A stretch of DNA of 38,623 bases, taken from the IMG/VR virus record IMGVR_UViG_3300036985_002742, positions 1-38,623 of that record; one strand, given 5' to 3'. Of the stretch, positions 12,251 through 34,307 are shown one piece after another. Under the pieces are notes generated by a model, which saw only the letters and a list, made by a program, of their open reading frames with translations, was not told where the DNA came from and ran no database searches. The translations under genes and the position numbers were made by a program. The DNA comes from a virus. Taxonomy: Duplodnaviria; Caudoviricetes. How positions within the stretch are numbered: position 1 is the stretch's first letter; the number at the start of each line of letters is the position of its first letter.

Positions 12251-12670
12251 ATGATCGTGCCCTTCAAAGCCGAACACCTTGCCAAGCTCTCGCTGCAAAG
12301 CACGCAGCTTGCCATGTCCGAGCAACTGACGAACCCTGAATATGCCACGATGCTGGAAGGCACTTACGCCTATTCCCTGATCGAGGGCGACGAGGTGCTC
12401 TGCTGTGCCGGATTGATGCCGGTCTGGGAAAACCGCTCGATGGGTTGGGCTCTGGTGTCCAGCAAGGCTGGCAAGCACTTCATTGAGATTCACCGCAATG
12501 TGGCAGCCGCAATCAGAATGTGTCCGGATCGTCGCGTTGAGATCGCCGTCGACTCGGAATTTGCAGAAGGCAAGCGCTGGGCAAAGATGCTCGGCCTGAC
12601 CTTTGAAGGTCGCATGCGCGGCTATGGCGTGGACGGTCGCGATCATGACCTTTTTGCACGCGTAAAATGA
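12251..12670 (+). CDS. GNAT-like protein of the podovirus tail/core cluster
   Basis: RWAKMLGLTFEGRMRGYGVDGRDHDLFAR resembles the C-terminus of GNAT acetyltransferases; conserved position after the nozzle gene. Confidence 0.65.
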   Translation: MIVPFKAEHLAKLSLQSTQLAMSEQLTNPEYATMLEGTYAYSLIEGDEVLCCAGLMPVWENRSMGWALVSSKAGKHFIEIHRNVAAAIRMCPDRRVEIAVDSEFAEGKRWAKMLGLTFEGRMRGYGVDGRDHDLFARVK

Positions 12671-12698
12671 TGCGAAAATCTCAACAGTGATATAGAAT
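12668..12698 (+). promoter_or_regulatory. 19-bp operator and putative promoter for the internal virion genes
   Basis: TGATGCGAAAATCTCAACA (12668-12686); ATGCGA-17 bp-TAGAAT (12693-12698). Confidence 0.62.
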
Positions 12699-12725
12699 AC
12701 GCCTAACAAGGCATTGGAGTTTATT

Positions 12726-13271
12726 ATGGCCGCAATACCAATTATTCTTGCAGTAGCGTCCACGGCGATGTCCGTGGTTGGCTCTATTCAGCAAGGCAAT
12801 GCGCAGGAAGCGCAATATAAGGCTCAGGCTCAAGCGCAGGAATACAACGCGAAGATCTCTGAGAACCAGGCTATTGCCACAAACCAGCAGACTTCTGCAC
12901 GCGAGGACGCTGAACGCCGTCAACGCCGCATCGCCTTGGGGGGCGCTCGCGCATCCATGGCCGAATCCGGCCTGACTGACAGCGGCTCGATCCTCGACAT
13001 GTTCGATCAAAGCGCCATCAACTCCGAGCTCGATGTGCTGAACACGCGCTTCGAAGGCAACATGGCTGCACGCGGCTTCAATGAGCAGGCAACGCTGGAC
13101 CGCTACGCTGCTGCAAACTCACGCTCCAACGCCAAGTCTGCAAGCACGGCCAAGTGGATCAACGCTGGCTCTGCCCTGATCTCAGGCGCATCGTCGGCTT
13201 ACTCCGGCTACAAGACTGCCGAATTCCAAAAAACACAGACTGATGTCTGGAAAAAACAGGGGCTTATCTAA
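12726..13271 (+). CDS. Internal virion (ejection) protein, small
   Basis: Hydrophobic N-terminus, Ala/Gln-rich helices, ARASMAESGL...GS motif; GGAG RBS supports ATG 12726. Confidence 0.75.
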   Translation: MAAIPIILAVASTAMSVVGSIQQGNAQEAQYKAQAQAQEYNAKISENQAIATNQQTSAREDAERRQRRIALGGARASMAESGLTDSGSILDMFDQSAINSELDVLNTRFEGNMAARGFNEQATLDRYAAANSRSNAKSASTAKWINAGSALISGASSAYSGYKTAEFQKTQTDVWKKQGLI

Positions 13272-16200
13272 TGGCGCGCGAACTCGACCTTAACTTGGCG
13301 CGAGGCGATAGCGCTGGCAACAACTCCGTTCGCATCCCGCAGCTCAACCAACAAAAGGTTGTCTCGCAGCTTCCAAACAGTCCGCGCATGCAGCCGGTCC
13401 AGATCTCCAACGACATCGGCAAGGCGCTGTCCGGCATGGGTGGCGCACTTGGTGACGCGACCAAGGCAGCTCAGTTTGCCGACGCGACTGATCTCAGAAC
13501 GCAGGAGTTTGAAGTCCAGCAAGAGAAGGAAAAGCAGACGCTTTCTGCGCAAAAGGCCGTGTCTGAAAGCTCGCTTTCGCTGATCAGCCATTTTCAGGAA
13601 TCGCAGGCAGCGGTTGAGCCTGGCGCTGTCGGCTTCACTGGCAAGATCACGAAGGACATCGACACGCATATCGAGGCCGCAACGAAAGACGCGACGCCCT
13701 ACTACAAGAAACAGTATGAAACCAGCATGGTCGGCGTGCGTCAGCACCTGATCGCCAAGGGCCAGGAATACGAATACGGCGAAGGCCTGAAGCTCGAGGT
13801 AGACAACGTCAACAAGGGCCTCGAAAACTCGCAGAAGATCGTCTACGCCGATCCTGCCTTGTTTGAGCAGGAGCTCACCCGCTGGGGCAAGACCATCGCG
13901 GACAACACGCGATTCAATCCAGAAGCCAAGCGCACCATGATTGAGTCCGTGCGCAAGCAGCTCACATGGGCTGCCGGCGCGAAGGCGATCGAGGGCAATC
14001 CGCAAGTCTGGAATGCCACGCTCAATCCCTACTCACCGAAGAACAATCCGAATGCGGTGCCTGGCGCCAATGGCGTCACCGAATTCCGTGCTCAGAAAAC
14101 AGACTACGACGCGTCCACATGGGAAAAGCGCCCTGATGGCTCTGCCAAGGGATCCGGCTTTCTCGGCGTTCTGAAGCGCCCTGATGGCGGCGTCTCCACT
14201 GAAATCAGCGTGGGCGTGACGATCGACGGCAAGCAAGTCGACGTGCCGACTCTGGTGCCAACCCTGACCAAGGCCGAAGTCAAGACGCTGCTCACGCTGA
14301 AAGACGATCAGAAAGTCCCTGACTCGATCGTCAAGAAGGCTGCCGAGTTTGCCCGCACCCGCATCAAGGACGGCAAGCCTGTGTTTGCCCAGCCTGGCGA
14401 GGAAGGCGACATCGTTTCAGCCAAGCCTGCTGCCGGCGCCAATGGTACACCAGCCAGCGCTGCCGCAACCGGTCCTGCGTCATTCGACGGCGTCATGGGC
14501 TTCATCTTCAAGAAAGAAGGCGGCTACAACGCAGACGACGGCAATGGCCATCCCGTGAATTTCGGCATCAATCAGGGCGCAAACCCTGACATCGATGTCA
14601 AGAACCTTACGAAAGAGAAGGCTGCTGAGATCTACAAGACGCGCTACTGGAAGGCGATCAATGGCGACACTCTGCCGCCTGCTACTGCACTGATGGCGAT
14701 GGATGCGGCGGTCAACCAGGGCGTTGGCTTTGCTCAGGAAATCCTGGCCAAGTCCGGTGGCGACGTCACCAAAATGGCCCAGCTCCGCAAGGAACGCTAC
14801 GAAAGCATCATCGCGGCCAACCCTGCGAAAGAGAAATACCGCGCCAACTGGATGAAGCGCCTGAACGAAGCATCGGCTCAGGCCGGAGCTGCTTCCGGTT
14901 CTGCTGGATCTTCCGAGTCTGGGATGCCGGCTGCACCGGTGGGCCGCGTCAAGATTGGCCAGCCCTGGTTTGATCTGGCGACGTTCGACGAGCAGCAGAA
15001 ATTCCGCCAGTACGCCGAAGCGCAGTCCGGCAAGCTTGAGACCGAAATGGCCAAGCAGCGCCAGGAAATCGCCTCAAGCCTCGAGCTCGAGACCCGCAAC
15101 ATCGGTGAAATGGTGTCACGCGGCGTGGCCCCACAAGGCCAGCCGAAAAGCCTGGCTGACTTTCAGGCCGCTTATCAGAACCCTGAACGCGCGATCCAGG
15201 CTCATGCAGCCTACGAGAACGCATGGAACACGGCTCAGGAAACCTCAAAATACAACGGACTTCCGACGGCCAAGCTGGTCGAGGTGATCAAAGAGACAGC
15301 GCCAAGCGCCAACGATCCTGACTTCGCTGTGAAGTCGAACCTCCAGCAGATCAGAATGCAATCGGCAGCCAGCATCATCACGGCGCGTCAGAAAGACCCT
15401 TGGGGATTTGCCCAGGCCACCGGCGACTTCAATGCCGGCCTTGCTGATCCAACGAAAAAAGACTTCTCCGACGTGATCAAGCGTCGTGCGGCCGCGCTGC
15501 CTCAGATGATCGAGAAGTATGGCCTCACCTCTGCCAGCGTCATGACGTCGGCCGAAGCCACCAACCTATCTGACCGCATGGCCATGATGCCGGCCGATGA
15601 TCGTGTTGCCCTGCTCAAGACGCTGCGCCAGTCGATCGGCGACGATACCGCCTATGCGACGCTGCTCAATGCGATCCGCCCTGATTCACCCGTCACCGTG
15701 ATGGCTGGCAATATCGCAGCCGTGGGCGGCACCGTGCGCATCGGATCCGAGAACATCACGACCGACAAGATCGCCAGTCGTCTGGCCCGCGGCGAGGATC
15801 TGCTGAACCCTCGTGGCGTCGACAAGAAAGCCGACGGCACCAAGTCTGCATTCCCGATGCCTAAAGAGCAGGACATGCGCTCCGAATGGACCGAGATGGT
15901 GGGCAATGCCTATGCCGGCTATCCAGACGCCGAAGCTCATGCCTATCAGGCCTATCGCGCCTACTACGCAGCCCGCGCTTCCGAAAAGGGGATCAATGAC
16001 GGGATCGTCAATGGCGAGCTCCAGGGTGAAGCGATCACGGCTGCCACCGGTGGCATCGGCTCAATCGATCCAAACGGAATGATGAATTCCTACAAGCTCA
16101 TCCTGCCCTACGGCATGCCTGGCGACGTGTTCAAGGACAAGTCTGCCCAGCTCTGGAAACAGGTTGGCCCAGCCAATGGCTACACCAAGCACACGATCGA

Positions 16201-16345
16201 CGATCTGCGCCTGATCCCGACCGGCGAGAATGGCCGCTACGTTGTGGCCGGCGCCGACATGCTGCCGCTTCCAGGCAAGAACAACAAACCGATTATCCTT
16301 GATTATCTAGCTAAACCGGCCGCTGCGCCGAGGAGAGACAACTAA
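13271..16345 (+). CDS. Internal virion protein with an embedded GH108-like lysozyme domain
   Basis: 1024 aa, helical; FIFKKEGGYN...NFGINQ...KNLTKEKAAEIYKTRYW...DAAVNQGV at about 14480-14870 matches GH108; C-terminal LILPYGM like epsilon15-type core proteins. Confidence 0.8.
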   Translation: MARELDLNLARGDSAGNNSVRIPQLNQQKVVSQLPNSPRMQPVQISNDIGKALSGMGGALGDATKAAQFADATDLRTQEFEVQQEKEKQTLSAQKAVSESSLSLISHFQESQAAVEPGAVGFTGKITKDIDTHIEAATKDATPYYKKQYETSMVGVRQHLIAKGQEYEYGEGLKLEVDNVNKGLENSQKIVYADPALFEQELTRWGKTIADNTRFNPEAKRTMIESVRKQLTWAAGAKAIEGNPQVWNATLNPYSPKNNPNAVPGANGVTEFRAQKTDYDASTWEKRPDGSAKGSGFLGVLKRPDGGVSTEISVGVTIDGKQVDVPTLVPTLTKAEVKTLLTLKDDQKVPDSIVKKAAEFARTRIKDGKPVFAQPGEEGDIVSAKPAAGANGTPASAAATGPASFDGVMGFIFKKEGGYNADDGNGHPVNFGINQGANPDIDVKNLTKEKAAEIYKTRYWKAINGDTLPPATALMAMDAAVNQGVGFAQEILAKSGGDVTKMAQLRKERYESIIAANPAKEKYRANWMKRLNEASAQAGAASGSAGSSESGMPAAPVGRVKIGQPWFDLATFDEQQKFRQYAEAQSGKLETEMAKQRQEIASSLELETRNIGEMVSRGVAPQGQPKSLADFQAAYQNPERAIQAHAAYENAWNTAQETSKYNGLPTAKLVEVIKETAPSANDPDFAVKSNLQQIRMQSAASIITARQKDPWGFAQATGDFNAGLADPTKKDFSDVIKRRAAALPQMIEKYGLTSASVMTSAEATNLSDRMAMMPADDRVALLKTLRQSIGDDTAYATLLNAIRPDSPVTVMAGNIAAVGGTVRIGSENITTDKIASRLARGEDLLNPRGVDKKADGTKSAFPMPKEQDMRSEWTEMVGNAYAGYPDAEAHAYQAYRAYYAARASEKGINDGIVNGELQGEAITAATGGIGSIDPNGMMNSYKLILPYGMPGDVFKDKSAQLWKQVGPANGYTKHTIDDLRLIPTGENGRYVVAGADMLPLPGKNNKPIILDYLAKPAAAPRRDN

Positions 16346-19300
16346 TGGCTTTCTTTAATGTTGCACCGACCGAGAAAGTCGATCGCCTGACCGAAACATT
16401 CGACAAGGGCTTCAACACCGTTGTCCGTACTGATGAAGCCAAACCGGACGCCTTTACTGGCGTTCTGGACGCGACACTAGGCGGCGTGCAGTCAGGGTTC
16501 AATCGCAGCAAATATAATCTTTTCTCTGATCAGGAGTCGAACCGCAAGAAAGAGATCGCGGCTTCGCTCGTGAAGATGCGCCCTGATCCCAAAACAGTGG
16601 GCTCCGTGGGCCAGTTCATGTTCGGCGTGGCCGAGCCTCTGTCCTTTATAGGCACCCAGTTCCTGCAAGACCCGATCACCTCTGTGCTGGCGCCATCGAC
16701 GCTGGCCATGGGGGTCGCGAAAGACTACGAACCGGCCCAGACGCAGATCAACATTGCCGACGGCATGGATGCTGAAACGGCAGCCAAGGTTGCCCGCACG
16801 CAGGCCACTGGCCTGGCCATTGGCACGATCGCTCCCGCCTCATTGAGCGGTGGCCTTCTGACGCGCGTCCTTACGGGCGGCGCTCTGAACGTGGCAGTCG
16901 GTGCTGGAGAACGGGCCGAGACCGGCCGGATCCTGCGAGCCAATGGCTATGAGGAAATGGCCAAGCAATACTCAGCGCTTGACGGCAACGCGGCGCTGGC
17001 CGAATTCGTCCTTGGCGGCTTTTTCGGTGGCGCGTTCGGCAGCCGCGGCAAAGCTCGCCTGGCCGCACCAGAATCCATTGAGCCATCCCACATCGACGCA
17101 GCCCTGACGGCCAACCAAAGCGTTAGTGCAACTGTCGACGCTGCACCTGGCGTCCCTGTTGATGCCAAGTCTGCCAAGGCTCACGCTGCCGCCTTCGATA
17201 GCACGATCGAGGCCCTGGCCTTTGGCAACAAGCCAAACGTCGAAAGCCTCCTGACCGAAGCTGGCTTCCTCGGCAAGCGTCCGGACTTCAACGCCGTGGC
17301 GATCATCCGCGAAGAATTGGAAAAGGCCGGTTTTGACGATGTCGCTGCCAAGGTGCGCGAGCTCGAGACCGCAGCCAAAGAGCGCGGCCTTCACGTCGAT
17401 GGCGCCGATCTCAATGTGGTGCTGTCTGAAAATCCTGCCGACGTCACCGTTGGCGGACTGAAAGGTCGCGAGTCAGCCGTGAAAATCGGCAACGACTATG
17501 TGCCAACCGAATTCCGCCTCGTCGAAGCCGGTGACGTTCGCGCCACCATGGACAAGGCCGACAATCAATACCGCGACCGAACCCGCGTCGCGTCCGAGCA
17601 GCAGATTCAGGAAGCTGCGCGCGGGCTCGATCCTCGTTTGCTGGGCGATTCACCGGTGATGGACTTTGGTGCGCCGGTTATGACGGCCGACGGCAAAATC
17701 ATCGCCGGAAACGGAAGGGCGGCTTTCATAGAGCGCGCCTACGACACGAACGCAGCCGAGTCCTACCGATCATATCTGAAAGAGAACGCGGCGGCTCTGG
17801 GGCTCAATGCAAGCGAAATAGACGGCATGGCCCGTCCGGTGCTTGTTCGCGTGCTCCAGCGTGACGTCGACGTGAACAAAGCAGCTATTCTGTCGAATGA
17901 AGGCGGCGCGATGGGCATGTCCGCCCTCGAGCAGGCGAAGGTCGACGGCGAACGCCTGGGCGATTTTCGTGCGTTTGAGTTTGGCGAAGATGGCGCGGTG
18001 GGCAATGTCGGCAATATGCCGTTCATCCGCTCATGGGTTGAGCAGTTCCCGACCAATCAGCGCAGCCGCCTGATGGACTCCGATGGCATGCTGTCAGCCG
18101 AGGGCAGCCGCCGTCTCCAGAACGCGATCATGTACCGCGCCTATGGTGACAGCGACACGCTATCCCGTCTGATCGAGGCCACTGATCCTGGCAGCCGAAA
18201 CATTGTGACGGCCTTGTCTCGCACCGCAGCCCGCGTGGCCGATGCGAAAGAAGCGATCATGCGTGGTGATCTCTATCCGCACGATCTCTCCGAAGACTTG
18301 CTGATGGCGGTCGAAAAATACGACTCGATCCGCAAGAGCGGCATGGCCATCAACACATGGGTCAACCAGATCGACGGCTTTGGCGATGGCCTGACAGGCG
18401 AAGCGCGTGCGCTCGTCGTGTTCCTCGACAAGAACATTCGCAGCGCCAGGACGATCGCCGATGAGATCGATGCCTACTACCAGCGCCTTGAAGCGCTTGG
18501 CGATCCGAAACAGGGATCCATGTTCGAGGCGGCGACGCCGACCAAGCAGGATGTGTTTCAGCCAATGCTGGACGCAGACGCCGTGGCCTATTCGCGAATG
18601 GACCAGACCGAGACGCCTCAGTTCAAGGCCTGGGCTGGCACCGACAAGCCCGTCATCGAATATGACGACATCAACAATTTTGAATTTAACGGCGAAGGTC
18701 CGTTCGTGCTGCGCGCCTATCACGGCACGACGAATAGCTTTGATGCGTTCGACGCCTCCGTCAAGGGCAACATGGAAGGCCAATATGGCGCGGTGAATTA
18801 CTTCACCTCCAGCGAATATGACGCCAGTGAAAACTACGCTGGCATGGGGCCTGATCTTACCAGCCGCATCGAGTCCAAGGGCGAGCAGCTCAGTTACAAG
18901 CTGCGCGATGAGTTTGACGAGCTCGGCGGTGATGAGAACCAGGCGGCTGCCATGCAGGCGTTGAAAGAGAAATATGGTGAGGACGTCTATTCAGAAAACC
19001 TGGTGACGATGGCCAAGAACATGGTTGCCAAGGATCTCGATGGTGGCAACGAAAAAGTGTTGGAGGTCTTTATCAAGACGGAGCGGCCTTTTGTCGTGGG
19101 TGGTGAAAAGTCTCCATGGCTTGAATTCTTTGACGAAGGTGTCATCGAAACTCAGGCAATCGAACGCGTTGCCGATAACAATGGCATTGACGTCGACGAA
19201 GTCCGTGCACAGTTCAGCGATTACGAGGATGAAATATCCGACGCACGCTATGAAATACTGGACGATCAGGCCAACCCTTTGATCGAAGCCGTGCAGACCG

Positions 19301-21300
19301 TGGCTGATCGCTACGAGTTTGATCCGATGGCGATCCTGTCAAGCCTTTATGAAATGACCGGAGAAGGCTCCGTCTCTCACACGAGACTTGAAAGCGAGCT
19401 CCGCAATCTGGCTGACAAGGCCTATATCGAGAATCCGGAAACTGGCGATCTGATCTCCAGCCAGGTTGTTTCAGATATCATTCAGGAGCTTGGATTCGAC
19501 TCCATCATTCTGAAAGATGCTGATGTACGCTTCAAGAGTATGTCGATGGATGACGGCACGGCTCACATCCACGTCTTCGATCAAAACAATACCAACATCA
19601 AATCCGCGACCGACAACTCTGGCGCGTTTGATCCTGCTGATCCACGCATCAATTACTCACGCAACGAGGACATCGTCGCGACGGTCGAGCAGCGCATCGC
19701 TCAGGACTTCGACGGCGCAGTGGCTGAATATGCCGCGCTGCCTGATTCAGCCGGTGGCCGCATCCTCAACACCGACCTGGCCCGCGAGCTCTCGCCTGAC
19801 TACCGTGCCGATCGCACGCGCTCTGCCGAAGTGCATGAGCCTGTCAGTGCGTTCGTGAAGAAGCTCTATGCCGAAAAACTCTCGCGTCCGACACCGGAAG
19901 GCTATGACAACGTCGTGCTGTTCACGGCCGGAGGCACTGGAGCAGGCAAGACGACTGGCATCAACATGCTCGGCAGCGCGGCCGACAAAGCCGAAATGAT
20001 CTACGACACCAACATGAACCGCGTCGATTCATCGAAACAGAAGATCGACCAGGCTATCGAGGCTGGCCGCGAGATCGTCGTGATCTATGTGCACCGCGAT
20101 CCGGTCGACGCCCTGGTGAACGGCGCCTTGCCTCGCGCGATGCGCATGGGCCGCACGGTGCCAGTGAAGGATCACGCTGCGACGCATGCTGGCGTGACGG
20201 AAACCATTCCAAAACTCATGGAGCTCTACGCAAACGATTCGCGTGTGAGCTTCGTTCTCGTCGACAACTCGCTGGGCAAAGGCAATGCGCAGCTCACGAG
20301 TGTTGATAAAATCAGAACAGTAGAGTATAATGGCCTACAGGAGAAATTGAATGAAGCAGCAAAAACAGAATACGAAGCCGGCAGGATCTCAGAAGCCGTC
20401 TACCGCGGCACCGTTGGCAGTGACATTGCCGGCGTCCGGCCTGACGCACGCGGAGCTGACGCAGCAACTGGGCGATCAGTTCGTGGCCAACCTCAATCGG
20501 CAAACACAGTCGAAAGCCTGACCGACGTCTTCCGCTCGCAGTTTGGCAAAGACGCCAGCCGCCTGATCGAAGTCTCACGCGTCGCCATTGTTCAATCCGT
20601 CACTGATCTGCCAGCCAGGGCCGACGCCATGCCGCATCCATCCGATGTCGGCGCGATGTACGATCCCCGCACCGGCGTGTCCTATGTCGTGGCAGACAAC
20701 ACCTCCCCTAGTCAGATCCGCGGCCGCATCCTGCATGAGATCGGCGTTCACGCCGGCATGAAGGATATGCTGGGCGATGCCCTTTACCTTGACGTGCTTG
20801 GCCATGTTGATGCTAAAATCGCATCAGGCGACGCACGCTTTATCGAAGCACGTCGTCGGGCCGAAGCGGGTGGAGGCAACATTGCCGAGGAGACATTGGC
20901 CTACCTTGTCGAGAAGGCGCCTGAAATTCCGATGGTCCGCCGCATCCTTGCAGCCGTTCGCCAGTGGCTCTATCGCACAACTGGCGGGCGCTATGTCGAT
21001 CTAAATACGAACGACCTTGTGGCCATGGCCAGTGCATCGTTGCGTCGTCAAGCATTCGATGCCAGCCGGACAATAGATGCGCGAGCTGCGAGTGTGAATG
21101 AATTTTACAATACTGTAGCGGAGTCTGATACAATCGCGACTAACGACAATCCTCTACCGGACACCATGATCCCTACAGGCGACACGATGGAACCAATAGC
21201 TCTAGCAACTGCCAAGGCTGATGCGGAAATCGCAACGTCTGAGCAGATGCAGCCTGGCTACATGTCGGCTGTCGAATGCGCATTGGTGGCGGGCGAATGA
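16345..21300 (+). CDS. Large polyvalent internal virion protein (ParB-like, ART-like, zeta-like kinase, zincin-like domains)
   Basis: 1651 aa in the ejection-protein cluster. NQYRDR...GAPV...IIAGNGR (ddrB-like ParB); TPQFKAW...YHGT...YFTSS...NIKSATDNSGAFD (ART-PolyVal); FTAGGTGAGKTT...YDT...RAMRMGRTVP (zeta-toxin-like P-loop); GAMYDP...ILHEIGVH (zincin-like). Confidence 0.82.
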   Translation: MAFFNVAPTEKVDRLTETFDKGFNTVVRTDEAKPDAFTGVLDATLGGVQSGFNRSKYNLFSDQESNRKKEIAASLVKMRPDPKTVGSVGQFMFGVAEPLSFIGTQFLQDPITSVLAPSTLAMGVAKDYEPAQTQINIADGMDAETAAKVARTQATGLAIGTIAPASLSGGLLTRVLTGGALNVAVGAGERAETGRILRANGYEEMAKQYSALDGNAALAEFVLGGFFGGAFGSRGKARLAAPESIEPSHIDAALTANQSVSATVDAAPGVPVDAKSAKAHAAAFDSTIEALAFGNKPNVESLLTEAGFLGKRPDFNAVAIIREELEKAGFDDVAAKVRELETAAKERGLHVDGADLNVVLSENPADVTVGGLKGRESAVKIGNDYVPTEFRLVEAGDVRATMDKADNQYRDRTRVASEQQIQEAARGLDPRLLGDSPVMDFGAPVMTADGKIIAGNGRAAFIERAYDTNAAESYRSYLKENAAALGLNASEIDGMARPVLVRVLQRDVDVNKAAILSNEGGAMGMSALEQAKVDGERLGDFRAFEFGEDGAVGNVGNMPFIRSWVEQFPTNQRSRLMDSDGMLSAEGSRRLQNAIMYRAYGDSDTLSRLIEATDPGSRNIVTALSRTAARVADAKEAIMRGDLYPHDLSEDLLMAVEKYDSIRKSGMAINTWVNQIDGFGDGLTGEARALVVFLDKNIRSARTIADEIDAYYQRLEALGDPKQGSMFEAATPTKQDVFQPMLDADAVAYSRMDQTETPQFKAWAGTDKPVIEYDDINNFEFNGEGPFVLRAYHGTTNSFDAFDASVKGNMEGQYGAVNYFTSSEYDASENYAGMGPDLTSRIESKGEQLSYKLRDEFDELGGDENQAAAMQALKEKYGEDVYSENLVTMAKNMVAKDLDGGNEKVLEVFIKTERPFVVGGEKSPWLEFFDEGVIETQAIERVADNNGIDVDEVRAQFSDYEDEISDARYEILDDQANPLIEAVQTVADRYEFDPMAILSSLYEMTGEGSVSHTRLESELRNLADKAYIENPETGDLISSQVVSDIIQELGFDSIILKDADVRFKSMSMDDGTAHIHVFDQNNTNIKSATDNSGAFDPADPRINYSRNEDIVATVEQRIAQDFDGAVAEYAALPDSAGGRILNTDLARELSPDYRADRTRSAEVHEPVSAFVKKLYAEKLSRPTPEGYDNVVLFTAGGTGAGKTTGINMLGSAADKAEMIYDTNMNRVDSSKQKIDQAIEAGREIVVIYVHRDPVDALVNGALPRAMRMGRTVPVKDHAATHAGVTETIPKLMELYANDSRVSFVLVDNSLGKGNAQLTSVDKIRTVEYNGLQEKLNEAAKTEYEAGRISEAVYRGTVGSDIAGVRPDARGADAATGRSVRGQPQSANTVESLTDVFRSQFGKDASRLIEVSRVAIVQSVTDLPARADAMPHPSDVGAMYDPRTGVSYVVADNTSPSQIRGRILHEIGVHAGMKDMLGDALYLDVLGHVDAKIASGDARFIEARRRAEAGGGNIAEETLAYLVEKAPEIPMVRRILAAVRQWLYRTTGGRYVDLNTNDLVAMASASLRRQAFDASRTIDARAASVNEFYNTVAESDTIATNDNPLPDTMIPTGDTMEPIALATAKADAEIATSEQMQPGYMSAVECALVAGE
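20301..20343 (+). promoter_or_regulatory. Intragenic sigma70 promoter and RBS
   Basis: TTGATA (20303-20308)-17 bp-TATAAT (20326-20331), then AGGAG (20339-20343); overlaps the degenerate palindrome TGTTGATAAAATCAGAACA (20301-20319). Confidence 0.75.
20351..20521 (+). CDS. Nested out-of-frame 56-aa ORF (candidate antitoxin/immunity peptide)
   Basis: MKQQKQNTKPAGSQKPSTAAPLAVTLPASGLTHAELTQQLGDQFVANLNRQTQSKA in the +1 frame relative to the host gene; has its own promoter, with AGGAG 7 nt before the ATG. Function is inferred. Confidence 0.65.
   Translation: MKQQKQNTKPAGSQKPSTAAPLAVTLPASGLTHAELTQQLGDQFVANLNRQTQSKA
21219..21237. promoter_or_regulatory. 19-bp operator-like palindrome inside the 3' end of the polyvalent gene
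   Basis: TGATGCGGAAATCGCAACG; lies downstream of a TGnTACAAT extended -10 (21126-21134). Confidence 0.55.
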
Positions 21301-23804
21301 AGGCGCGCTGCGTCCAGGCTGTCTCGAACGCCATCGGCCGTCCTCTGACGGTCGCCGAATCCCGCAACATGGAAACCCGCATCAAGGATGCGATGAAGCG
21401 CGAGGCCTCGCGTGATCCGCAGGCCTGGGCTGCCTTGTCCGTGGGCGATCGCATGCGTGCTGGTGCGGCTGCTGCCGCCAAGGAATTGGTGCAGGAAGCG
21501 ACACTGAAACGGGTGCGCATCGCCAAGCAGATCGAAGCGTGGGATCGCGCTGACGCCTACCTCAACGACCAGGTCGCAAAAGGCCTGGACGACACCAAGC
21601 TCGACGCTCTCGAGCGCATGCTCGCTGCCAAGAACGACGGCAAGGGCAACATCACATCCATCGAATCCAACGCCAACGGCATTGAAGCCGTGTCCATGGG
21701 GAAACTCGTCGACGCATGGGAAGCCATTGCGCCGCAGTTCATGGGCACGCTGGCTCGTCGTGAAATGGAAGACGCCTTCATCCGTGAAGTGCATGGCAAG
21801 GCGTCCGGCATTCCTGAAATCGCCAAGGCAGTGAAGGCCTGGCGCGAGACGACCGAAAGCCTGCGCCTGCGTTTCAATGACGCCGGCGGCGACGTGGGCA
21901 AGCTCGACAACTGGGGTATGCCTCATTCGTGGAGCCAGGACATCGCCAACCAGGTCGGCAAAGACAAGTGGGTGAGCGACATGCTCCCGCTGCTGGACCG
22001 AAATCGCTACATCAAGGAGAGCGGCACGCTGATGGACGACGCCGAGCTCACCGAATTCCTCGGCAAGGCCTGGCTGTCAGTGGCCTCCAACGGCGCCAAC
22101 AAGCAGAAGAACGCATCCTTTGGCTCCGGCGTGAAGGCCAACCGTAATTCAGCCGAGCGTCAGATTCACTTCCGCGACGGCGATGCTGCCTTGCAGGCCT
22201 TCCGCGTCTACTCCGATCGCAACGTGTTCCAGGTTCTGTCCGGCCACGTCAAACGCATGTCCTCGGACATTGCCCTGATCGAGCAGTTTGGCCCGAATGC
22301 CGACCACGCCTTTGAAGCGCTGGTCGATGCAGCCTATCGCGAGGCTGCGGTTGGCAGTCCTGATCTGGAGAACAAGTTTTCTGGCCAGGTCGAGCACGTC
22401 ACCAACCTCTACAATTATGTAGCCGGCAACAATCCTCCGCCCTACTCCCGCTTCTGGGCGCAGTTTATGGGCGATATCCGCTCAGTGCTGTCTGCTGCCA
22501 AGCTGGGTTCGGCTCCGATCTCAGCGATCGCTGACAATGGCACGCTGTATCTGACGGCCAAGGTCAACGGCATCCCCGCGATCAAGGTGTTTCTCAATCA
22601 GGTTCGGGGATTCAACCTCGCGAACCAGACTGAGAAGGACTTGGCTCGCCGCGCCGGCCTGATGGTCCGCTCGATGACCGATGATGTGAACCGGTTCAGC
22701 TCCGACACGATGGGGCCGCGCTGGTCGCACAAGCTCAGCACGTTTTTCATGAAGGCCTCTGGCCAGTCTGCTCTCGATCAGGTGCAGCGCCGTGCGTTCT
22801 CGATCTCCATGATGGACACGATCGGCTCGCTGACGCGCAAATACTCAGACATCGGCATGCTCGATCCAGACGATGCGCGCTTTCTCGTCTCCAAGGGGAT
22901 CACTCCGCAGGAATGGGAAATCTGGACCAAGGCGCAGCCCGAAGGCTGGGGCAACAATCATACCGTCCTGACACCGGAAGCGATCTATCGCGTGCCAGGC
23001 CTGTCGGATCTCGACAAGGAGCGTGCGGCCACCAAGCTGCTCGCCGTCACGCTGGAAGAAGGCAACATCGCCGTGATCGAGCCTGGCGCTCGCGAGCGCG
23101 CCGACATGACATCCGGCACAAGGGCAGGCACCTTCAAGGGTGAGCTGCTGCGCTCGATCTTCCTGTTCAAGTCATTCCCGCATGCCATGTTTAAGCGTCA
23201 CATCGAACGCGGCATCAAGAGTTATGACACCTGGCAGGGCAAGGCTGGCTATCTCGCCTCCCTGCTGGCCTTGCAGACCGTGTTCGGCGCCGTGGCGCTC
23301 GAGACCAACGACGTGCTGTCTGGCCGTGATCCGCGCAACCTCAATCCGCTTGAAAAGAACGGCACCCGCAACCTGATCGCAGCGCTCCTGAAGGGCGGCG
23401 CGTTCGGTATTTACGGAGACTTCCTGTTCAGCGAGTCCGGTGCGAATGGCCAGACTCCAGTCGAAACGCTGTCTGGTCCAGTGGCCGGCACTCTTTCTGC
23501 TTTCGCAGGGTTGACTCAAGGAAATATGGTACAATTCCTGCGGGGCGATGATACGCATGCAGGCGCTGAGCTGGCCAAGTTTATCCGTGGCATTACGCCA
23601 GGATCGAATCTTTGGTACTTGAAGGCCGCAACGGATCACTTGATCTTCAACCAGATGCAGGAGTTTTTCTCCCCTGGGTATCTCGCCAGCGCACAGCAGC
23701 GAGCTCACCGGAATTCTGGGACAACCTACTGGTGGGCGCCGCGCGACCAGACAGGTGAAAACATGCGCGCACCTAAATTTGAAAACATTGCAGGGGGTAA
23801 TTGA
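21297..23804 (+). CDS. Internal virion (ejection) protein, large
   Basis: ATGA overlap; MKARCVQAV, RFNDAGGDVGKLDNWGMPHSW, FLFKSFP and GGAFGIYGDFLF motifs of epsilon15/BPP-1-like core proteins. Confidence 0.82.
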   Translation: MKARCVQAVSNAIGRPLTVAESRNMETRIKDAMKREASRDPQAWAALSVGDRMRAGAAAAAKELVQEATLKRVRIAKQIEAWDRADAYLNDQVAKGLDDTKLDALERMLAAKNDGKGNITSIESNANGIEAVSMGKLVDAWEAIAPQFMGTLARREMEDAFIREVHGKASGIPEIAKAVKAWRETTESLRLRFNDAGGDVGKLDNWGMPHSWSQDIANQVGKDKWVSDMLPLLDRNRYIKESGTLMDDAELTEFLGKAWLSVASNGANKQKNASFGSGVKANRNSAERQIHFRDGDAALQAFRVYSDRNVFQVLSGHVKRMSSDIALIEQFGPNADHAFEALVDAAYREAAVGSPDLENKFSGQVEHVTNLYNYVAGNNPPPYSRFWAQFMGDIRSVLSAAKLGSAPISAIADNGTLYLTAKVNGIPAIKVFLNQVRGFNLANQTEKDLARRAGLMVRSMTDDVNRFSSDTMGPRWSHKLSTFFMKASGQSALDQVQRRAFSISMMDTIGSLTRKYSDIGMLDPDDARFLVSKGITPQEWEIWTKAQPEGWGNNHTVLTPEAIYRVPGLSDLDKERAATKLLAVTLEEGNIAVIEPGARERADMTSGTRAGTFKGELLRSIFLFKSFPHAMFKRHIERGIKSYDTWQGKAGYLASLLALQTVFGAVALETNDVLSGRDPRNLNPLEKNGTRNLIAALLKGGAFGIYGDFLFSESGANGQTPVETLSGPVAGTLSAFAGLTQGNMVQFLRGDDTHAGAELAKFIRGITPGSNLWYLKAATDHLIFNQMQEFFSPGYLASAQQRAHRNSGTTYWWAPRDQTGENMRAPKFENIAGGN

Positions 23805-26002
23805 TGACAGTTCCATCAACCACATCGCGCGTAAACTATTCCGGCGACGGTTCTAGTGTTTCGTTTCCTATCAGCTTTTATTTTCTCGCGAACGCCGACC
23901 TCGTCGTTTTGCTTGTCAGTGCTGCTGGGGTTTCCACAACACAGGTGCTGAATACTAACTACACGTTGACGGGCGCTGGCGTCGAAGCCGGTGGCACGCT
24001 GACCATGCTGGTGGCTCCGCCGTCTGGCTCGACGCTGGTGATCTTCCGCGATCCCGCCGTCACGCAGCTTGTCGACTACGCGCCGAACGATCCCTTCCCT
24101 GCTGAAACGCATGAGCGCGCTCTGGATCGTCTCACGATGATCTCTCAGCGCTTCCTCGATCTGCTCAACCGGACGTTCCGGATCTCGGATGGATCGACGA
24201 TCAACTCCACGATCCTGGATGTCAGTGCTGCCAGTCGCGCCAACAAGGTGATGTCCTTCGACGCATCTGGCGATCTGATCGCAGCGCAGGAGCTTGGCAT
24301 CTGGCAAGGCAACTGGGCGTCAGGCACGAATTACAATACGCGCGACCTGATCAAGGACACGAGCAACAACAACATTTATATCTGTATCGCCGAGCACGTT
24401 GCCGGCGGCGCACAACCTATTTCCAGCAATGCTGATGTAGCCAAGTGGGCATTGATCGTCGATGCGGCTGCGGCGGCAACGTCTGCCAGTGCAGCGGCTG
24501 CAAGCGCCATTGCGGCGGCTGGGTCTGCTACGGATGCGGATATTTCAGCGACCGCGGCAGCAGCAAGCGAAACAGATGCTGCCGATAGCGCTGCCGATTC
24601 AGCAACGAGCGCGACGGCTGCGGCTGCAAGCGCAAGCACGGCTACAACCAAGGCCACTGAGGCCACTGGTTCAGCGTCTGATGCTGCTGGGTCTGCCACC
24701 TATGCGGCGTCCTCTGCGACCGCTGCTGCGGCCTCTGAAGCTGCCGCGGCTGCTGTCATCGCCACTGGCATGTATAGCGCCGTGCAGGACAAAACCGGCA
24801 GTTACACCGTGCTGGCCGCCGATGCAGGCGACCTGATCCGCGTTGACACAAGTGGCGGTGCGGCGACCATCACGTTGCCGGCAATCTCGAGCGTCACCGA
24901 CGGCTTCAAGATCGCGATCGTCAAATGGTCTGGCGACGCCAACGCCGTCACGGTCCAGCGCTCAGGCTCAGACCTGATCAATGGCGCGTCGACCTATCTG
25001 CTGGACGCGCAATACAAAAGCGCGACATACGTCGCAGACTTCCAGACCAATACCTGGTTTGCCGCGGGCACTGGTGGATCTGGCACGAACATTATTCTTG
25101 ACTCATTCAGCGGCAATGCCAGCACAACGGCGTTCACGCTTGCGGGCGATCCTGGTTCTGAGAACAACACTCAGGTGTTCATCAGTGGCGTCTACCAAAA
25201 TAAATCCCAGTACAGCGTAAGCGGCACCACGCTCACATTTACGGCCGCTCCTCCGACCGGCACTAGCAACATCGAAGTGGTCTGGTCGCAGCCTCTGCCG
25301 ATCGGCACGCCGAGCGATGGCACCGTGACGACCGCGAAGATCGCTGATGGCGCTTTGGCTGCGACGACCACCGGCCTGGCCAAGATGGCGGATGGCTTCC
25401 TCGCAGCTACAGCGGCAGCCCGTGCGAAGATGGCCGATGCCTTTGTCACCTATGCCAAGATCCAAAGCGTCGCCGCAGGCAAAGTGCTTGGCCGTGATAC
25501 TTCTGGCAATGGTGATGTGCAGGAATTGCCGATTTCCGTTGATGCTAGTGGGAGAGTAAAACTTCTAAATACAGTAAGTGTTGGCAATGCCACTCCGTCA
25601 ACATCAGGTGCAGGTATCACATTCCCAGCTACGCAGAGTGCTAGTACAGATGCTAATACGCTAGATGATTATGAGGAAGGAACTTGGACACCAACTAAAG
25701 GTGCTGGGATAACTGGAACTGTTGCATCATCTACTGGAAATTATGTAAAAGTTGGTAATACCGTATATATTAATGGAACATTTACTGGCTCTGGAAGCAT
25801 ATCAATGTCAACACGAGGAATAGCTGTAGCTGGTGGATTACCATTTGCTGGTTACGGACAAGGAACTGGTGTAGTTTGCAATAATGCTGGCGAAGGTGGT
25901 GCTTGTATCATTAATTTTTCAGGTGCTTTATTTTATACTGATAGTGCAGCCATAACTGGTTCTGCTTATTTTTATTTTGCTGGCTCATATATAACATCAT
26001 AA
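23804..26002 (+). CDS. Tail fibre
   Basis: T7 gp17-like N-terminus (YSGDGSSVSFPISF...HERALDRLTMISQ), Ala/Ser/Thr-rich stalk, C-terminal ANTLDDYEEGTWTP module. Confidence 0.9.
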   Translation: MTVPSTTSRVNYSGDGSSVSFPISFYFLANADLVVLLVSAAGVSTTQVLNTNYTLTGAGVEAGGTLTMLVAPPSGSTLVIFRDPAVTQLVDYAPNDPFPAETHERALDRLTMISQRFLDLLNRTFRISDGSTINSTILDVSAASRANKVMSFDASGDLIAAQELGIWQGNWASGTNYNTRDLIKDTSNNNIYICIAEHVAGGAQPISSNADVAKWALIVDAAAAATSASAAAASAIAAAGSATDADISATAAAASETDAADSAADSATSATAAAASASTATTKATEATGSASDAAGSATYAASSATAAAASEAAAAAVIATGMYSAVQDKTGSYTVLAADAGDLIRVDTSGGAATITLPAISSVTDGFKIAIVKWSGDANAVTVQRSGSDLINGASTYLLDAQYKSATYVADFQTNTWFAAGTGGSGTNIILDSFSGNASTTAFTLAGDPGSENNTQVFISGVYQNKSQYSVSGTTLTFTAAPPTGTSNIEVVWSQPLPIGTPSDGTVTTAKIADGALAATTTGLAKMADGFLAATAAARAKMADAFVTYAKIQSVAAGKVLGRDTSGNGDVQELPISVDASGRVKLLNTVSVGNATPSTSGAGITFPATQSASTDANTLDDYEEGTWTPTKGAGITGTVASSTGNYVKVGNTVYINGTFTGSGSISMSTRGIAVAGGLPFAGYGQGTGVVCNNAGEGGACIINFSGALFYTDSAAITGSAYFYFAGSYITS
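24460..24760 (+). repeat. Ala/Ser/Thr-rich low-complexity stalk repeats
   Basis: AAAAATSASAAAASA-type repeats within the tail fibre. Confidence 0.7.
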
Positions 26003-26028
26003 ATAATAAAATTTAAAAGGAACAAATT

Positions 26029-26265
26029 ATGTTTACAGAAACTAAAGTAATAGACCAAATCACAGTAACCGAGAGCGGCATAGTTTTATACCGTGAAACT
26101 ACCCGTATATTAAAAGATGGTGAGCAAGTTGCACAAACCTATCATCGTAGCTCACTAGCACCAGCATCGGACTTAACAGGTATCCCAAGCAATGTTGCTG
26201 CTATCTGCAATGTAGCATGGACACCTGAAGTCATTGCTGCTTACCAAGCGTCATTGCCAGCATAA
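26029..26265 (+). CDS. Putative tail fibre assembly/chaperone protein
   Basis: AAAGGA RBS; IDQITV...YHRSSL...ICNVAWTPEVIAAYQA pattern commonly follows DDYEEG-type fibres. Confidence 0.65.
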   Translation: MFTETKVIDQITVTESGIVLYRETTRILKDGEQVAQTYHRSSLAPASDLTGIPSNVAAICNVAWTPEVIAAYQASLPA

Positions 26266-26546
26266 TGGAAAAGCTAATAGCAAAAGTAAACGCTCTGCTA
26301 GGTAAACTATACATACCTTGTAGAGTGCCAGCAGATAAGCAGATGCACTTCATCTGCGGAATCGTCATTGCTTCGGTGGCGGTACCATTAATGGGTGTTT
26401 ATTCGGTTGCCTTGGTGGCGGTGATCGCCTTGGCTAAAGAGATCTATGACCACGCCAATAAAAGCCTGCACACGTCTGACGTTTGGGACTGGGTGGCTAC
26501 GGCACTGGGTGGGCTGGTTGGATTCTGCCTCGTCGGTTTTATGTAA
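26265..26546 (+). CDS. Small membrane protein (DKxxH, VanZ-like)
   Basis: DKQMHF...KEIYD...DVWDWVATALGG with hydrophobic segments. Confidence 0.65.
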   Translation: MEKLIAKVNALLGKLYIPCRVPADKQMHFICGIVIASVAVPLMGVYSVALVAVIALAKEIYDHANKSLHTSDVWDWVATALGGLVGFCLVGFM

Positions 26547-26570
26547 ACAACATTTTTGAAAGGATCAGAA

Positions 26571-26831
26571 TTGGATCAGTCTATCATTAACATCATCATC
26601 GGGATCGCTGGATGTCTGGGAGGCTTTGTCTTGCACGCACTCTGGGACGCGCAGAAAGACTTGCAGAAAGCTGACACCGAGCTTGCCAAGCGAGTCGGCG
26701 AGATCGAGGTGCTGGTGGCCGGCAATTACGTCACCCGTGACGACTTCAAGCAGACGATCGGCACCCTGTTCGATAAGCTCGACAGGATCTCAGACAAGAT
26801 CGACGGCAAGCAGGATCGCGTTCATCCATGA
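26571..26831 (+). CDS. Holin-associated/antiholin-like protein (1 TM + coiled coil)
   Basis: TTG start after AAGGA; N-terminal TM then a coiled coil (YVTRDDF...LFDKLDRISDKID); first gene of the lysis cassette. Confidence 0.6.
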   Translation: MDQSIINIIIGIAGCLGGFVLHALWDAQKDLQKADTELAKRVGEIEVLVAGNYVTRDDFKQTIGTLFDKLDRISDKIDGKQDRVHP

Positions 26832-27034
26832 GACTGAATGCGGACTGGCGCAGGATCGCTCGCAAGGCGTGGTCTATCCGCCTCGGGATCGCTGCTGCAT
26901 TTCTATCCGGTGGTGAGATTATCTTACCACTGTTTGTCGATTCGTTCCCCCGCAACGTGTTCGCCGTCCTGAGTTTCGTCACCGTCGTGGCTGCCGTGCT
27001 CGCACGACTCATTGCCCAGAAGGATCTGAACTGA
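26828..27034 (+). CDS. Putative holin/pinholin
   Basis: 68 aa, two hydrophobic segments, WRRIARKAWSIRL...ARLIAQ; directly before the endolysin. Confidence 0.7.
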   Translation: MRLNADWRRIARKAWSIRLGIAAAFLSGGEIILPLFVDSFPRNVFAVLSFVTVVAAVLARLIAQKDLN

Positions 27035-27504
27035 TGGCCACGAACACCCGACGCCTTGGCGCTGCGGCCGCGATCGCAACACTGATCGCCATCCCCGCTG
27101 AGGGTATCAGGCAGATCGCCTACTACGATCCGCCTGGCATCCTTACCGTCTGTTACGGCTCCACGACCAACGTCGTGAAAGGCCTGCGATACAGCCTCGA
27201 CGAGTGCCGTGCACGGCTGGACAAGGACATGATGGCTGCCATCGTGACCGTCGATCGCTGCGCACCAGGCCTGCCTGAGAACGCCTTGGCCGCGTTTGGG
27301 GACGCTGTCTACAACATGGGACCGACGATCGCCTGCAACCCTGCCAAGTCCACTGCTGCGCGCCTGCTGAAGGCCGGCGATGTGACGGGCGCATGCAATC
27401 AGCTTCCGCGCTGGGACAAGGCGAACGTGGCCGGCCTGATGGTCTCGCTGCCAGGTCTCACCAAGCGGAGAGCAAAGGAGCGTGACCTGTGTCTTGGCAA
27501 ATAA
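27034..27504 (+). CDS. Endolysin, GH24 lysozyme, probably SAR type
   Basis: E-x8-D-x5-T triad (EGIRQIAYYDPPGILT), ACNQLPRW, LPGLTKRRAKERDLCL; Ala-rich N-terminal anchor. Confidence 0.92.
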   Translation: MATNTRRLGAAAAIATLIAIPAEGIRQIAYYDPPGILTVCYGSTTNVVKGLRYSLDECRARLDKDMMAAIVTVDRCAPGLPENALAAFGDAVYNMGPTIACNPAKSTAARLLKAGDVTGACNQLPRWDKANVAGLMVSLPGLTKRRAKERDLCLGK

Positions 27505-27830
27505 AAATTATTGCAGCCATGCTTTTTGCGGCCGTCTGCTTTGGCGCCGGCTGGCGGGTGAAGGCGGCTTTTGTCGCTGAGCGCGATCTGGCCGTGGTCG
27601 AGGCCAAGCAGGAATTCATTGACGCCTACCGGAAAGAGGAAGGCAAGTCCGCTGCATTGTTCGAGGATAAATTGAAGGAGCTGAAAGCCAATGAAAAAAC
27701 GATTGAGTACGAGCGCATCAAGATTGTGGATCGCCCTGTTTATCGCAACGAGTGCCTCGATGACGACGGCCTGCACCTCATTGAAGGTGCAAGAACAGGC
27801 GGCGCCGATTCAGGAAAATCTTCTCGCTAG
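27489..27830 (+). CDS. Rz: i-spanin
   Basis: N-terminal TM, coiled coil, IVDRPVYRNECLDDDGL; AAGGAG RBS. Confidence 0.8.
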   Translation: MSWQIKIIAAMLFAAVCFGAGWRVKAAFVAERDLAVVEAKQEFIDAYRKEEGKSAALFEDKLKELKANEKTIEYERIKIVDRPVYRNECLDDDGLHLIEGARTGGADSGKSSR

Positions 27831-27966
27831 GTGCGAACCGCTGACGAAGCACGAAGGCAAGAATGGTTCAATGGTGTTGCTCACGCTAACGCGCTGGGCG
27901 ACAGAATATAACGAATGCGCTGCCAGGCATAACGGTCTGGTGGATGCGATCAAGGGAGGTTTATGA
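27691..27966 (+). CDS. Rz1: o-spanin lipoprotein overlapping Rz
   Basis: Frame-shifted overlap with Rz; signal peptide ending MTTAC; YNECAARHNGLV. Exact start uncertain. Confidence 0.75.
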   Translation: MKKRLSTSASRLWIALFIATSASMTTACTSLKVQEQAAPIQENLLARCEPLTKHEGKNGSMVLLTLTRWATEYNECAARHNGLVDAIKGGL

Positions 27967-28460
27967 CCACGACAGTACAGAAGGAAATGCAGGATAAATT
28001 ATCTGGCGATATCGTTCAGATTGTAAATACGCAGAGCGGGGCGCTTGGTTCAAGCGTTGTCGTCATCCCTTTGGATGACACGATCCCTCAGATCACGGAG
28101 GGAACCGAGTTCATCACCGCGACTATTACGCCAACCAACGCGTCCAATGTGCTGGACATCACGGTGGTGCTGAACCTGTCAAACAACACTGGCGTGACCA
28201 ACGTGGCCGCGCTGTTTCAGGATTCGACAGCGAATGCCCTATGCGCTAGCGCCAAGTCTAGTATGGGCGTGGCCAACGCCATGACGCAGGTGACGCTCAA
28301 GCACCGGATGACGGCCGGCACTACCAGCGCTACTACGTTCCGCGTGAGGGTTGGACCATCTGGAGCAGTGACTATGGGCATCAACGGGACGGCTGGCAGT
28401 GGCCGGTTTTTTGGCGGCGTGTACATTTCGTCCATCACCATCACAGAATTTAAGGCTTAA
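27963..28460 (+). CDS. Stand-alone beta-rich virion/fibre-tip-like protein
   Basis: GGGAGG RBS; GDIVQIVN...IPLDDTIPQITEG...TITPTNASN...SSITITE resembles fibre C-terminal domains. Confidence 0.6.
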   Translation: MTTTVQKEMQDKLSGDIVQIVNTQSGALGSSVVVIPLDDTIPQITEGTEFITATITPTNASNVLDITVVLNLSNNTGVTNVAALFQDSTANALCASAKSSMGVANAMTQVTLKHRMTAGTTSATTFRVRVGPSGAVTMGINGTAGSGRFFGGVYISSITITEFKA

Positions 28461-28462
28461 GG

Positions 28463-28546
28463 TTCTTAGTGTCCTCCACTAAGGGACAGCAGTCTGATGC
28501 CCTCACGGGTTGCCTGAATCGGACTCCCGAGCTTCTCCACTCGGGG
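28463..28546 (+). ncRNA. Candidate structured RNA in the late-operon 3' UTR
   Basis: Three stems in a row: CTTAGTG/CACTAAG (loop TCCTC), AGTCTGAT/ATCGGACT, CCCGAG/CTCGGG (loop CTTCTCCA). Confidence 0.45.
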
Positions 28547-28549
28547 ATT

Positions 28550-28575
28550 AGACCCACTTCGGTGGGTCTTTTTTT
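28550..28575 (+). terminator. Intrinsic terminator ending the late operon
   Basis: AGACCCAC-TTCG-GTGGGTCT followed by a T-run. Confidence 0.92.
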
Positions 28576-28586
28576 GTGACGTAATC

Positions 28587-28618: not shown

Positions 28619-28624
28619 CACATC

Positions 28625-29096: not shown

Positions 29097-29102
29097 GATG
29101 GA

Positions 29103-29721: not shown

Positions 29722-29727
29722 TATATC

Positions 29728-33728: not shown

Positions 33729-34307
33729 TTAGGTCTCGATGTAGAGGATGGGCGCCGCCCACTGCACGTCAACGTCCGTCATCTGGGAGTTGGCGTTGAT
33801 CAGGTTATAGCGGCCGCGCTTGTAGCCACGGCGCAAGGTGCCGATCACTTGCACGCCATCGACCAGGCGGCATAGGCAGAATTTGCCAACGACCTCGGCC
33901 GAGACGTGGTCCACCGGCTTGGCGACGAACAGCAGCCAGCCATCCATATACTCCAGCGGCGATGAGCTGGTGCGGCACTGGATCGCAAACGATCCCAAGG
34001 CCATGGCGTGCGGAGCTGGGATGCGCTCGTCGCTTTCTTCGCTGTGCATTTCGCCGTGTCCGTCGACGAATCCCCGCAGCGGGACTGACTTTGCATCGGA
34101 CTGGATGCCGGCGTTCTCCATGACTTCGGCCACTGGCACGCCTAACAGGCGTGCGATGTCCGCGGCCTCCGCCATCTTCATGTTGCGCTTCCCCCTGAAG
34201 GCCAGGGAGAGGGCTGAATGGTCGACACCGATTTTCTTGGCCAGCTCGCGCTGGCTGATTCGCCGGTCTGCCATCAAGCTTTTGAACCAGTCGGTATTGA
34301 TCGTCAT
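33729..34307 (-). CDS. CI-like repressor (Xre HTH + degenerate S24-like domain)
   Basis: ISQRELAKKIGVDHSALSLAFRGKR HTH; C-terminal beta domain; divergent from a Cro-like gene. Confidence 0.85.
   Translation of the reverse strand: MTINTDWFKSLMADRRISQRELAKKIGVDHSALSLAFRGKRNMKMAEAADIARLLGVPVAEVMENAGIQSDAKSVPLRGFVDGHGEMHSEESDERIPAPHAMALGSFAIQCRTSSSPLEYMDGWLLFVAKPVDHVSAEVVGKFCLCRLVDGVQVIGTLRRGYKRGRYNLINANSQMTDVDVQWAAPILYIET

Follow-up and report, generated by a model that had tools for sequence, protein, structure and literature searches.

The 38,623-nucleotide virus record IMGVR_UViG_3300036985_002742 (a complete record of 38.6 kb, hereafter the window, by which the whole stretch is meant) carries a gene for a 1651-residue polyvalent protein, within which the coding sequence of a zeta-type kinase domain is followed by a 56-codon open reading frame (ORF) in the +1 frame. 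From comparison with homologous sequences, this nested gene is almost certainly real, and its product is likely the antitoxin of the ng_zeta1-type kinase domain encoded just upstream in the same gene. By the same comparisons the unit takes the form of a cassette, consisting of the kinase, an internal promoter-like site, a Shine-Dalgarno (SD) sequence, a +1-frame start within the last helices of the kinase and a short helical peptide. Where the cassette stands at the end of a gene the partner gene overlaps the kinase stop, and where it stands inside a long virion protein the frame of that protein (the host frame) continues across the partner gene and there encodes a low-complexity linker. The original prediction, made from the letters of the window, had proposed a portable toxin-plus-antidote cassette; its portability is borne out, in that the nested gene, with its signals, accompanies the kinase across many kinds of host protein.

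The conservation of the nested gene was followed in two sets of loci. The first comprised 63 viral loci found with the kinase, in which the kinase gene ends a few codons past the domain, and an ATG-initiated ORF stands at the partner position in 60 of them (58 in the +1 frame, 2 in the +2 frame). The enlarged set held 215 sequences including the window, of which 206 reach the end of the kinase (51 internal, 153 terminal and 2 intermediate); nine loci that stop short of the kinase end were left out, as was L200, which has a frame break. Clustering at 80% gave 47 internal representatives, 42 of them strict polyproteins, and 39 terminal ones, and the alignments A2 and A3 omit 9 of these 86. When a +1 ORF is required to start 40-100 nt before the kinase end and to stay open for at least 22 codons past it, 46 of the 47 internal loci have one, whereas control positions taken from those genes have one in 17.9% of cases; with ATG starts alone the figures are 42/47 and 9.9%. 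In other words, a small partner gene is linked to the kinase almost throughout (46/47 internal and 37/39 terminal representatives), and of 120 long proteins among the matches listed (562 matches in all), 119 have an internal kinase.

Some of these loci have features of their own. In the freshwater phages (L001-L063) the kinase is a gene of 270-400 aa with a Q/P/A-rich N-terminal extension, lying among small genes, and the partner is always next. In GenBank MW202577.1 (L216) the kinase, labelled 'thymidylate kinase', closes an 878-aa phage protein and is followed by an unannotated 40-aa partner at 6716-6838. Two kinase relatives (L186 3875-4729 and L233) have N-termini which by eye are like signal peptides; no partner was found in L186, and in L233 a motif-bearing ORF lies slightly downstream.

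A more specific test is provided by a partner hidden Markov model (HMM), trained solely on the non-overlapping part of 37 stand-alone partners. With this model the +1 frame beats all 639 decoys in 37 of the 47 internal loci, as against 0-2 of the 47 for each of the other five frames, and the nested ORF of the window scores 18.8 bits where the decoy maximum is 3.2. It is also the best match in its own genome (E 2.8e-4) in a six-frame search of 9 phage genomes with 7,048 segments; across these genomes, with coordinates read by eye, the nested ORF ranks first in six and second in one, and falls outside the top 16 in two. Moreover, in a shuffle-corrected pairwise test of the 42 strict polyprotein loci, made without motif selection, the +1 frame is best in 549 of 861 pairs, with a mean z of 2.11 against 0.44 for the host frame and no preference past the nested stop. 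The host-frame shadow of the +1 N-L-N motif occurs in 65/118 linkers and in 15/1561 other windows. Where the kinase gene ends, the partner peptide is an ordinary called gene, and an independent called protein aligns with the window peptide over 51 aa at 59% identity. On the strength of these sequence comparisons, the window ORF and the small gene found after stand-alone kinase copies are one and the same. The nested arrangement appears to recur in dozens of phages and plasmids and to be missed by gene callers; four out of four nested peptides are missing from 15 billion proteins.

The expression signals are conserved alongside the ORF. A promoter score of at least 8/12 is reached in 37 of the 47 internal loci and in 3.3% of 889 control windows, and an SD of at least 4 nt precedes 18 of 24 canonical ATGs as against 29 of 470 control starts. 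Codon choice was compared in 29 loci chosen because they have the helix motif. Here AAT encodes the Asn at the -10 box in 22 of 23 cases and the codon that supplies the ATG is T-ending in 12 of 12, against a T-ending background of 197/620. The promoter-like boxes, SD, start codon and ORF of the window (Table 1) all lie where the original prediction had placed them, and the promoter-like site is the top sigma70-like site within 10000-29999 (11/12). The homologue comparison that the prediction had proposed thus finds the promoter-like site, SD, ATG and +1 ORF conserved across kinase-internal loci, and expression of the nested gene from these signals is predicted. Its further suggestion that the ORF ends where the next domain begins is roughly right, the stop lying about 13 codons before the next recognisable domain (a phrog_873 match).

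Table 1. Positions of the nested gene, its signals and associated features in the window, and of related ORFs on plasmids
Feature	Position	Strand	Basis or remark
Nested +1-frame gene, 56 aa, predicted antitoxin of the kinase	20351..20521	+	Profile, conservation, codon tests
Sigma70-type promoter-like site	20303..20331	+	-35 TTGATA 20303-20308, 17 nt, -10 TATAAT 20326-20331
Shine-Dalgarno AGGAG	20339..20343	+	ATG 7 nt further on
Conserved amphipathic helix of nested peptide	20447..20515	+	Residues 33-55; motif ends in L-N
ng_zeta1-type (rewired) zeta kinase domain	19672..20418	+	Profile match, structure model, catalytic residues
Catalytic equivalents in kinase	ng D56 (19774), K115 (19948), R175 (20134), R181 (20152)	+	
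Host gene, 1651-aa polyvalent protein	16345..21300	+	Ejection gene cluster; N-terminal core-protein region, ddrB-ParB, ART-PolyVal, zeta kinase, further domain
Operator-like 19-bp dyad (TGTT-N11-AACA family) over -35 box	20301..20319	.	Matrix rank, pattern count
cI-like helix-turn-helix repressor, candidate operator binder	33729..34307	-	Binding putative
cro-like gene, alternative candidate binder	34418-34636		Operator copy 34369-34387 between cI-like and cro-like genes
Unannotated epsilon1-like nested ORFs	L217 2093-2293, L218 (Sphingobium), L220 (Paraburkholderia), L221-L224		Plasmid 'zeta toxin' genes that look orphan in records

Gonococcal Zeta_1 (PDB 6EPH) is matched along the whole kinase domain (E 3.8e-36) in a collinear HMM alignment covering profile positions 7-244, which also shows the rewired order, with the block bearing the catalytic Asp preceding the P-loop. 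The structure model of the kinase (pLDDT 96.8) has a TM-score of 0.83 to 6EPH, but of 0.43-0.56 to other zeta-like kinases and 0.43-0.45 to PezT and streptococcal zeta. The equivalents of D56, K115, R175 and R181, as mapped from the HMM alignment, are each invariant in 77 of 77 aligned kinases. By fold and sequence, therefore, the window kinase is a member of the ng_zeta1 (rewired) zeta subfamily. According to the available part of Rocker 2018 (PMC5923241), ng_zeta1 phosphorylates UDP-sugars at C4', with lysis of E. coli, and is blocked by epsilon1, an extended helical protein that covers the ATP site (PDB 6EPG/6EPH/6EPI). The original prediction had spoken of a zeta-family kinase neutralised by a small helical antitoxin; the zeta kinase stands, whereas the three-helix epsilon of streptococci is the wrong model, the known antitoxin of this subfamily being an extended helical peptide. 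In keeping with this, a single helix is predicted for the nested peptide rather than the three-helix bundle of the streptococcal epsilon/PezA type, and the ORF lies downstream of the kinase rather than in the upstream position of those antitoxins.

The gonococcal plasmid encodes epsilon1 separately, upstream of zeta1, and zeta1 there contains no nested ATG ORF; the same epsilon1-before-zeta1 order is given in the available parts of PMC2848598, PMC11964940 and PMC10212123. Seven other plasmid zeta1 loci have an unannotated +1 ORF at the position matching that of the window, and in one of them the kinase is part of a polyvalent protein of 1190 aa from Moraxella. When the seven peptides are made into a profile, with epsilon1 excluded, Epsilon_1 comes first of 177,635 PDB sequences (E 0.0032) and the hhalign probability against epsilon1 is 81%, both modest scores; the fetched flanks of the seven loci contain no further epsilon1-like segment. 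Because Epsilon_1 is the top PDB match and the flanks offer no other candidate, the nested ORF of the plasmid branch is, on sequence grounds, an epsilon1 homologue. A viral scan with the plasmid zeta1 alignment gave no loci, two order-level genome samples gave 2/401 and 6/401 matches, and ng_epsilon1 itself has five near-identical matches in protein databases. The plasmid profile scores 32 of the 86 representatives' +1 frames above the decoy 95th percentile, compared with 7 of 86 for +2, a mild enrichment.

The host gene belongs to a phage whose proteins match portal, capsid, nozzle, a T7-gp14-like protein, a lysozyme-bearing protein, RecT and a cI-like repressor, and its 1651-aa product contains all of the ddrB-ParB, ART-PolyVal and Zeta_toxin matches. 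Since the 842-aa protein encoded downstream is 42% identical to phiV10 virion proteins, and the N-terminus of the host protein gives a weak match to the neighbouring phiV10/Tyrion gene, the host protein can most probably be placed among the internal-virion (ejection) proteins, and the phage among the epsilon15/phiV10-like temperate podoviruses. From its place in the internal-virion cluster it would be injected. Within the host gene, the ART-PolyVal match (18709-19650) is split in two around an acidic insertion of lower GC3 (G or C at the third codon position), and a second promoter-like stretch (TTTACA ... TGATACAAT) lies at 21103-21134 in the last linker, with in-frame ATGs shortly after.

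The claim that the nested promoter overlaps a degenerate operator copy is also correct, the 19-bp dyad at 20301-20319 covering the -35 box. TGTT-N11-AACA, a pattern drawn after the copies were seen, is found five times in the window where 0.34 are expected. With a matrix made from four intergenic copies the nested dyad is ninth of 38,604 positions and the best inside any gene, the eight better copies being intergenic (before terminase, portal and ejection-protein genes, and between cI and cro), and its score is reached by 1 in 10,000 synonymous recodings. Other 19-bp dyads lie at 2417, 4637, 12668, 26911, 28587, 33668, 34369, 34839, 35473 and 37112, with weaker operator-like sites in the host gene at 20808 and 21219; the family occurs at promoter-like sites of early and late genes (terminase, portal, ejection-protein, lysis-region), often over the -35 and in the same register. 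Many window promoters thus appear to be controlled by one regulator. The position of the nested dyad suggests lytic-phase rather than lysogenic expression of the nested gene, given a putative binder and a putative negative sign, and because the operator-like site covers the -35, the protection of the lysogen that had been envisaged is doubtful.

The assignment of the window peptide as an antitoxin is probable, and it draws on shared position, frame and kinase family together with one conserved amphipathic helix. Several observations weigh against it. The phage peptide family shows no match by hhalign either to epsilon1 (0.08%) or to the plasmid nested peptides (0.14%), a PDB search with the family gives no epsilon1 match, and the profile of the plasmid nested peptides gives the window peptide -0.8 bits. 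An apparent bridge through P0153 (46% over 26 aa) fails as a family (hhalign 13.7%, no epsilon1 match), and a link from phage peptide to epsilon1 by hhalign, position-specific scoring matrix, HMM or PDB search is weak at most. In the kinase, of the two UNAM lactyl-binding residues, K59 is replaced by R in 73/77 sequences and N75 by S/A in 75/77; with these substrate residues changed relative to ng_zeta1, substrate and toxicity may therefore differ. The +1 peptide is absent from 2 of the 39 terminal representatives, one of which has a +2-frame version, and 10 of the 47 internal loci are not above the decoy maximum of the partner HMM. Without correction, the pairwise test gives the host frame the better score in more pairs (358 of 861, against 252 for the +1 frame); this raw BLOSUM comparison is biased by the P/G/R/Q-rich host frame and was replaced by the shuffle-corrected version given above. 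Lastly, an operator over the nested promoter is found in 0 of 8 other phage genomes, none of which has a detectable homologue of the window repressor. Searches of Pfam, PHROGs and NCBIfam yielded no family for the window peptide, and a search of the ESM Atlas with it gave no usable match.

The same lack of detectable epsilon1 similarity would be expected if the nested gene were real but its product, on binding to the kinase or to the virion protein, served as a chaperone, helped packaging or modulated activity, without neutralising the kinase. Such a generic binding module might also occur in 2-4 tandem copies, sometimes fused to other domains, as the helix does. This reading is nevertheless unlikely, since homologous plasmid cassettes free of any virion protein have an epsilon1-like peptide in the same place and frame, and the Acidobacteria loci consist of a bare kinase followed by the peptide, which is the layout of a toxin-antitoxin pair. 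The tandem-helix proteins (P0130, P0131, P0132, P0134, P0135, P0136, P0139, P0149, P0152, P0161 and P0172), some of which are fused to NT5C or to a membrane segment, could possibly be multivalent or orphan immunity proteins; two further matches of that search, P0133 and P0176, appear spurious.

In a quick tree the nested state needs six changes, of which strongly supported branches force one, and a freshwater stand-alone clade lies within the nested polyproteins with a support of 91. Over the nested gene the host-frame linker is the less conserved frame, and because of this poor conservation the comparison suggests that the linker is read-through across an existing partner gene. Of the original proposal of an immunity gene overprinted on the linker, the presence of the nested gene after the kinase stands; de novo overprinting is not borne out, as the same gene follows stand-alone kinases. 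Alternatively, the ORF might be a mere relic of an ancestral partner gene, its peptide without further importance and the internal promoter kept for downstream genes (the 842-aa core protein and the tail fibre), which would agree with a near-consensus promoter-like site bearing a late-type operator copy and with loss of the motif from some internal loci (10/47). Decay of this kind is hardly likely: the helix is kept among kinases that are only 30-60% identical, variation in the +1 frame is synonymous, the SD and ATG are retained, and there is the independent called protein noted above, with its 59% identity to the window peptide.

It remains to consider what the nested ORF would be worth by itself. 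The counts made by hand in the original prediction were recomputed and are correct, with GC3 in 40/56 codons of the +1 frame and 26/56 of the host frame over the nested ORF, and 6/21 for the host frame across LTHAELTQQLGDQFVANLNRQ; so is its caveat that host position 1 is G-rich, that position being G or C in 39/56 codons. GC3 was accordingly rejected as evidence, since GC3 of the +1 frame is GC1 of the host frame and naturally high. Moreover, the 10 long genes of the window hold 27 out-of-frame ATG ORFs of at least 56 aa, the nested ORF counted among them. With a G/C-rich host position 1 and so many comparable ORFs, the ORF and its GC3 prove nothing alone; it is conservation among homologous sequences that establishes the nested gene. 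A chance ORF and promoter look-alike thrown up by host-frame codon patterns, to which these counts and the raw alignment scores lend some colour, is scarcely credible and largely refuted, as the profile, promoter, SD, codon-bias and shuffle-corrected tests all set the site apart from controls and the same peptide is an ordinary called gene at the ends of kinase genes.

If the nested peptide is an antitoxin, the kinase would phosphorylate UDP-sugar cell-wall precursors and would be toxic in the cytoplasm, and the peptide, made from its own short transcript, would bind the kinase as an extended helix and block it as ng_epsilon1 does. More tentatively, a repressor-type operator might hold the nested promoter low in the lysogen, and the promoter might be freed on induction and on fresh infection, such that the antidote could be present while the ejection protein is made and just after injection. 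It is a speculative and rather doubtful extension that this constitutes an injection-coupled addiction module, in which the virion injects an active cell-wall kinase whose sole antidote is a gene concealed in the DNA that enters with it and read from a host-type promoter. Were it so, cells that transcribe the phage genome would disarm the kinase, and cells that destroy or silence the phage DNA (by restriction, CRISPR or a resident repressor on the operator) would be poisoned. The toxin could then go in-frame into any virion protein, the antidote being out of frame on the tail of the cassette, and a whole class of epsilon1-type antitoxins would be hidden from annotation.

The nearest known system is ng_epsilon1/ng_zeta1 of N. 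gonorrhoeae pConj (PMC5923241, available part), with which the window shares the rewired zeta fold, the catalytic residues and a small extended helical partner, and whose plasmid homologues have epsilon1-like peptides nested as in the window. It differs in that the gonococcal epsilon1 is upstream and separate, whereas the window partner is downstream, out of frame, inside the gene of the toxin and of a virion protein, with its own promoter-like site, is without detectable epsilon1 similarity, and accompanies a kinase in which two substrate residues differ. Iyer 2017 (PMC5512222) reports zeta-toxin-like kinases in polyvalent proteins and MuF fusions, with ddrB-ParB, ART-PolyVal and zeta-like kinase domains as in the host protein; the available part of that paper describes no nested or overlapping antitoxin. 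Intragenic Rpn antitoxins (Zhong 2023, 10.1101/2023.05.02.539157, available part) likewise lie within the toxin gene, with an internal promoter and start. RpnS, however, is an in-frame C-terminal part of a host-defence nuclease, whereas the window gene starts in the +1 frame, is phage-borne and has a product unrelated to the host protein. In Synechocystis slr0489/slr1079/slr1082 (10.64898/2025.12.20.695498, available part) and lambda Rz/Rz1, an out-of-frame nested product binds the host-frame product, and slr0489S relieves growth inhibition, but these are membrane, spanin-like proteins, with no kinase and no mobile cassette in polyproteins. The PezAT review PMC10532202 is also among the nearest precedents. 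More widely, within limited coverage of subscription journals, a literature search found neither a nested out-of-frame antitoxin of a zeta kinase nor one in a virion polyprotein, in agreement with the earlier statement that no description was known.

In polymorphic and MuF toxin-immunity pairs the immunity gene comes directly after the toxin domain. Those toxin domains are C-terminal, whereas the kinase here is almost always internal to the long proteins listed. The nested gene would offer a general answer to how phages carry toxic domains in the middle of a polyprotein, the antidote being encoded in a different frame of the linker that follows. It would also explain why relatives of ng_epsilon1 are scarce in databases although ng_zeta1 homologues are widespread, because the antitoxins would be nested and uncalled. 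The arrangement is also a further case, natural and recurrent, of one gene nested out of frame in another, and one for which a definite function is predicted; in polyvalent proteins, the linkers that follow other toxin domains may merit scanning in the same way.

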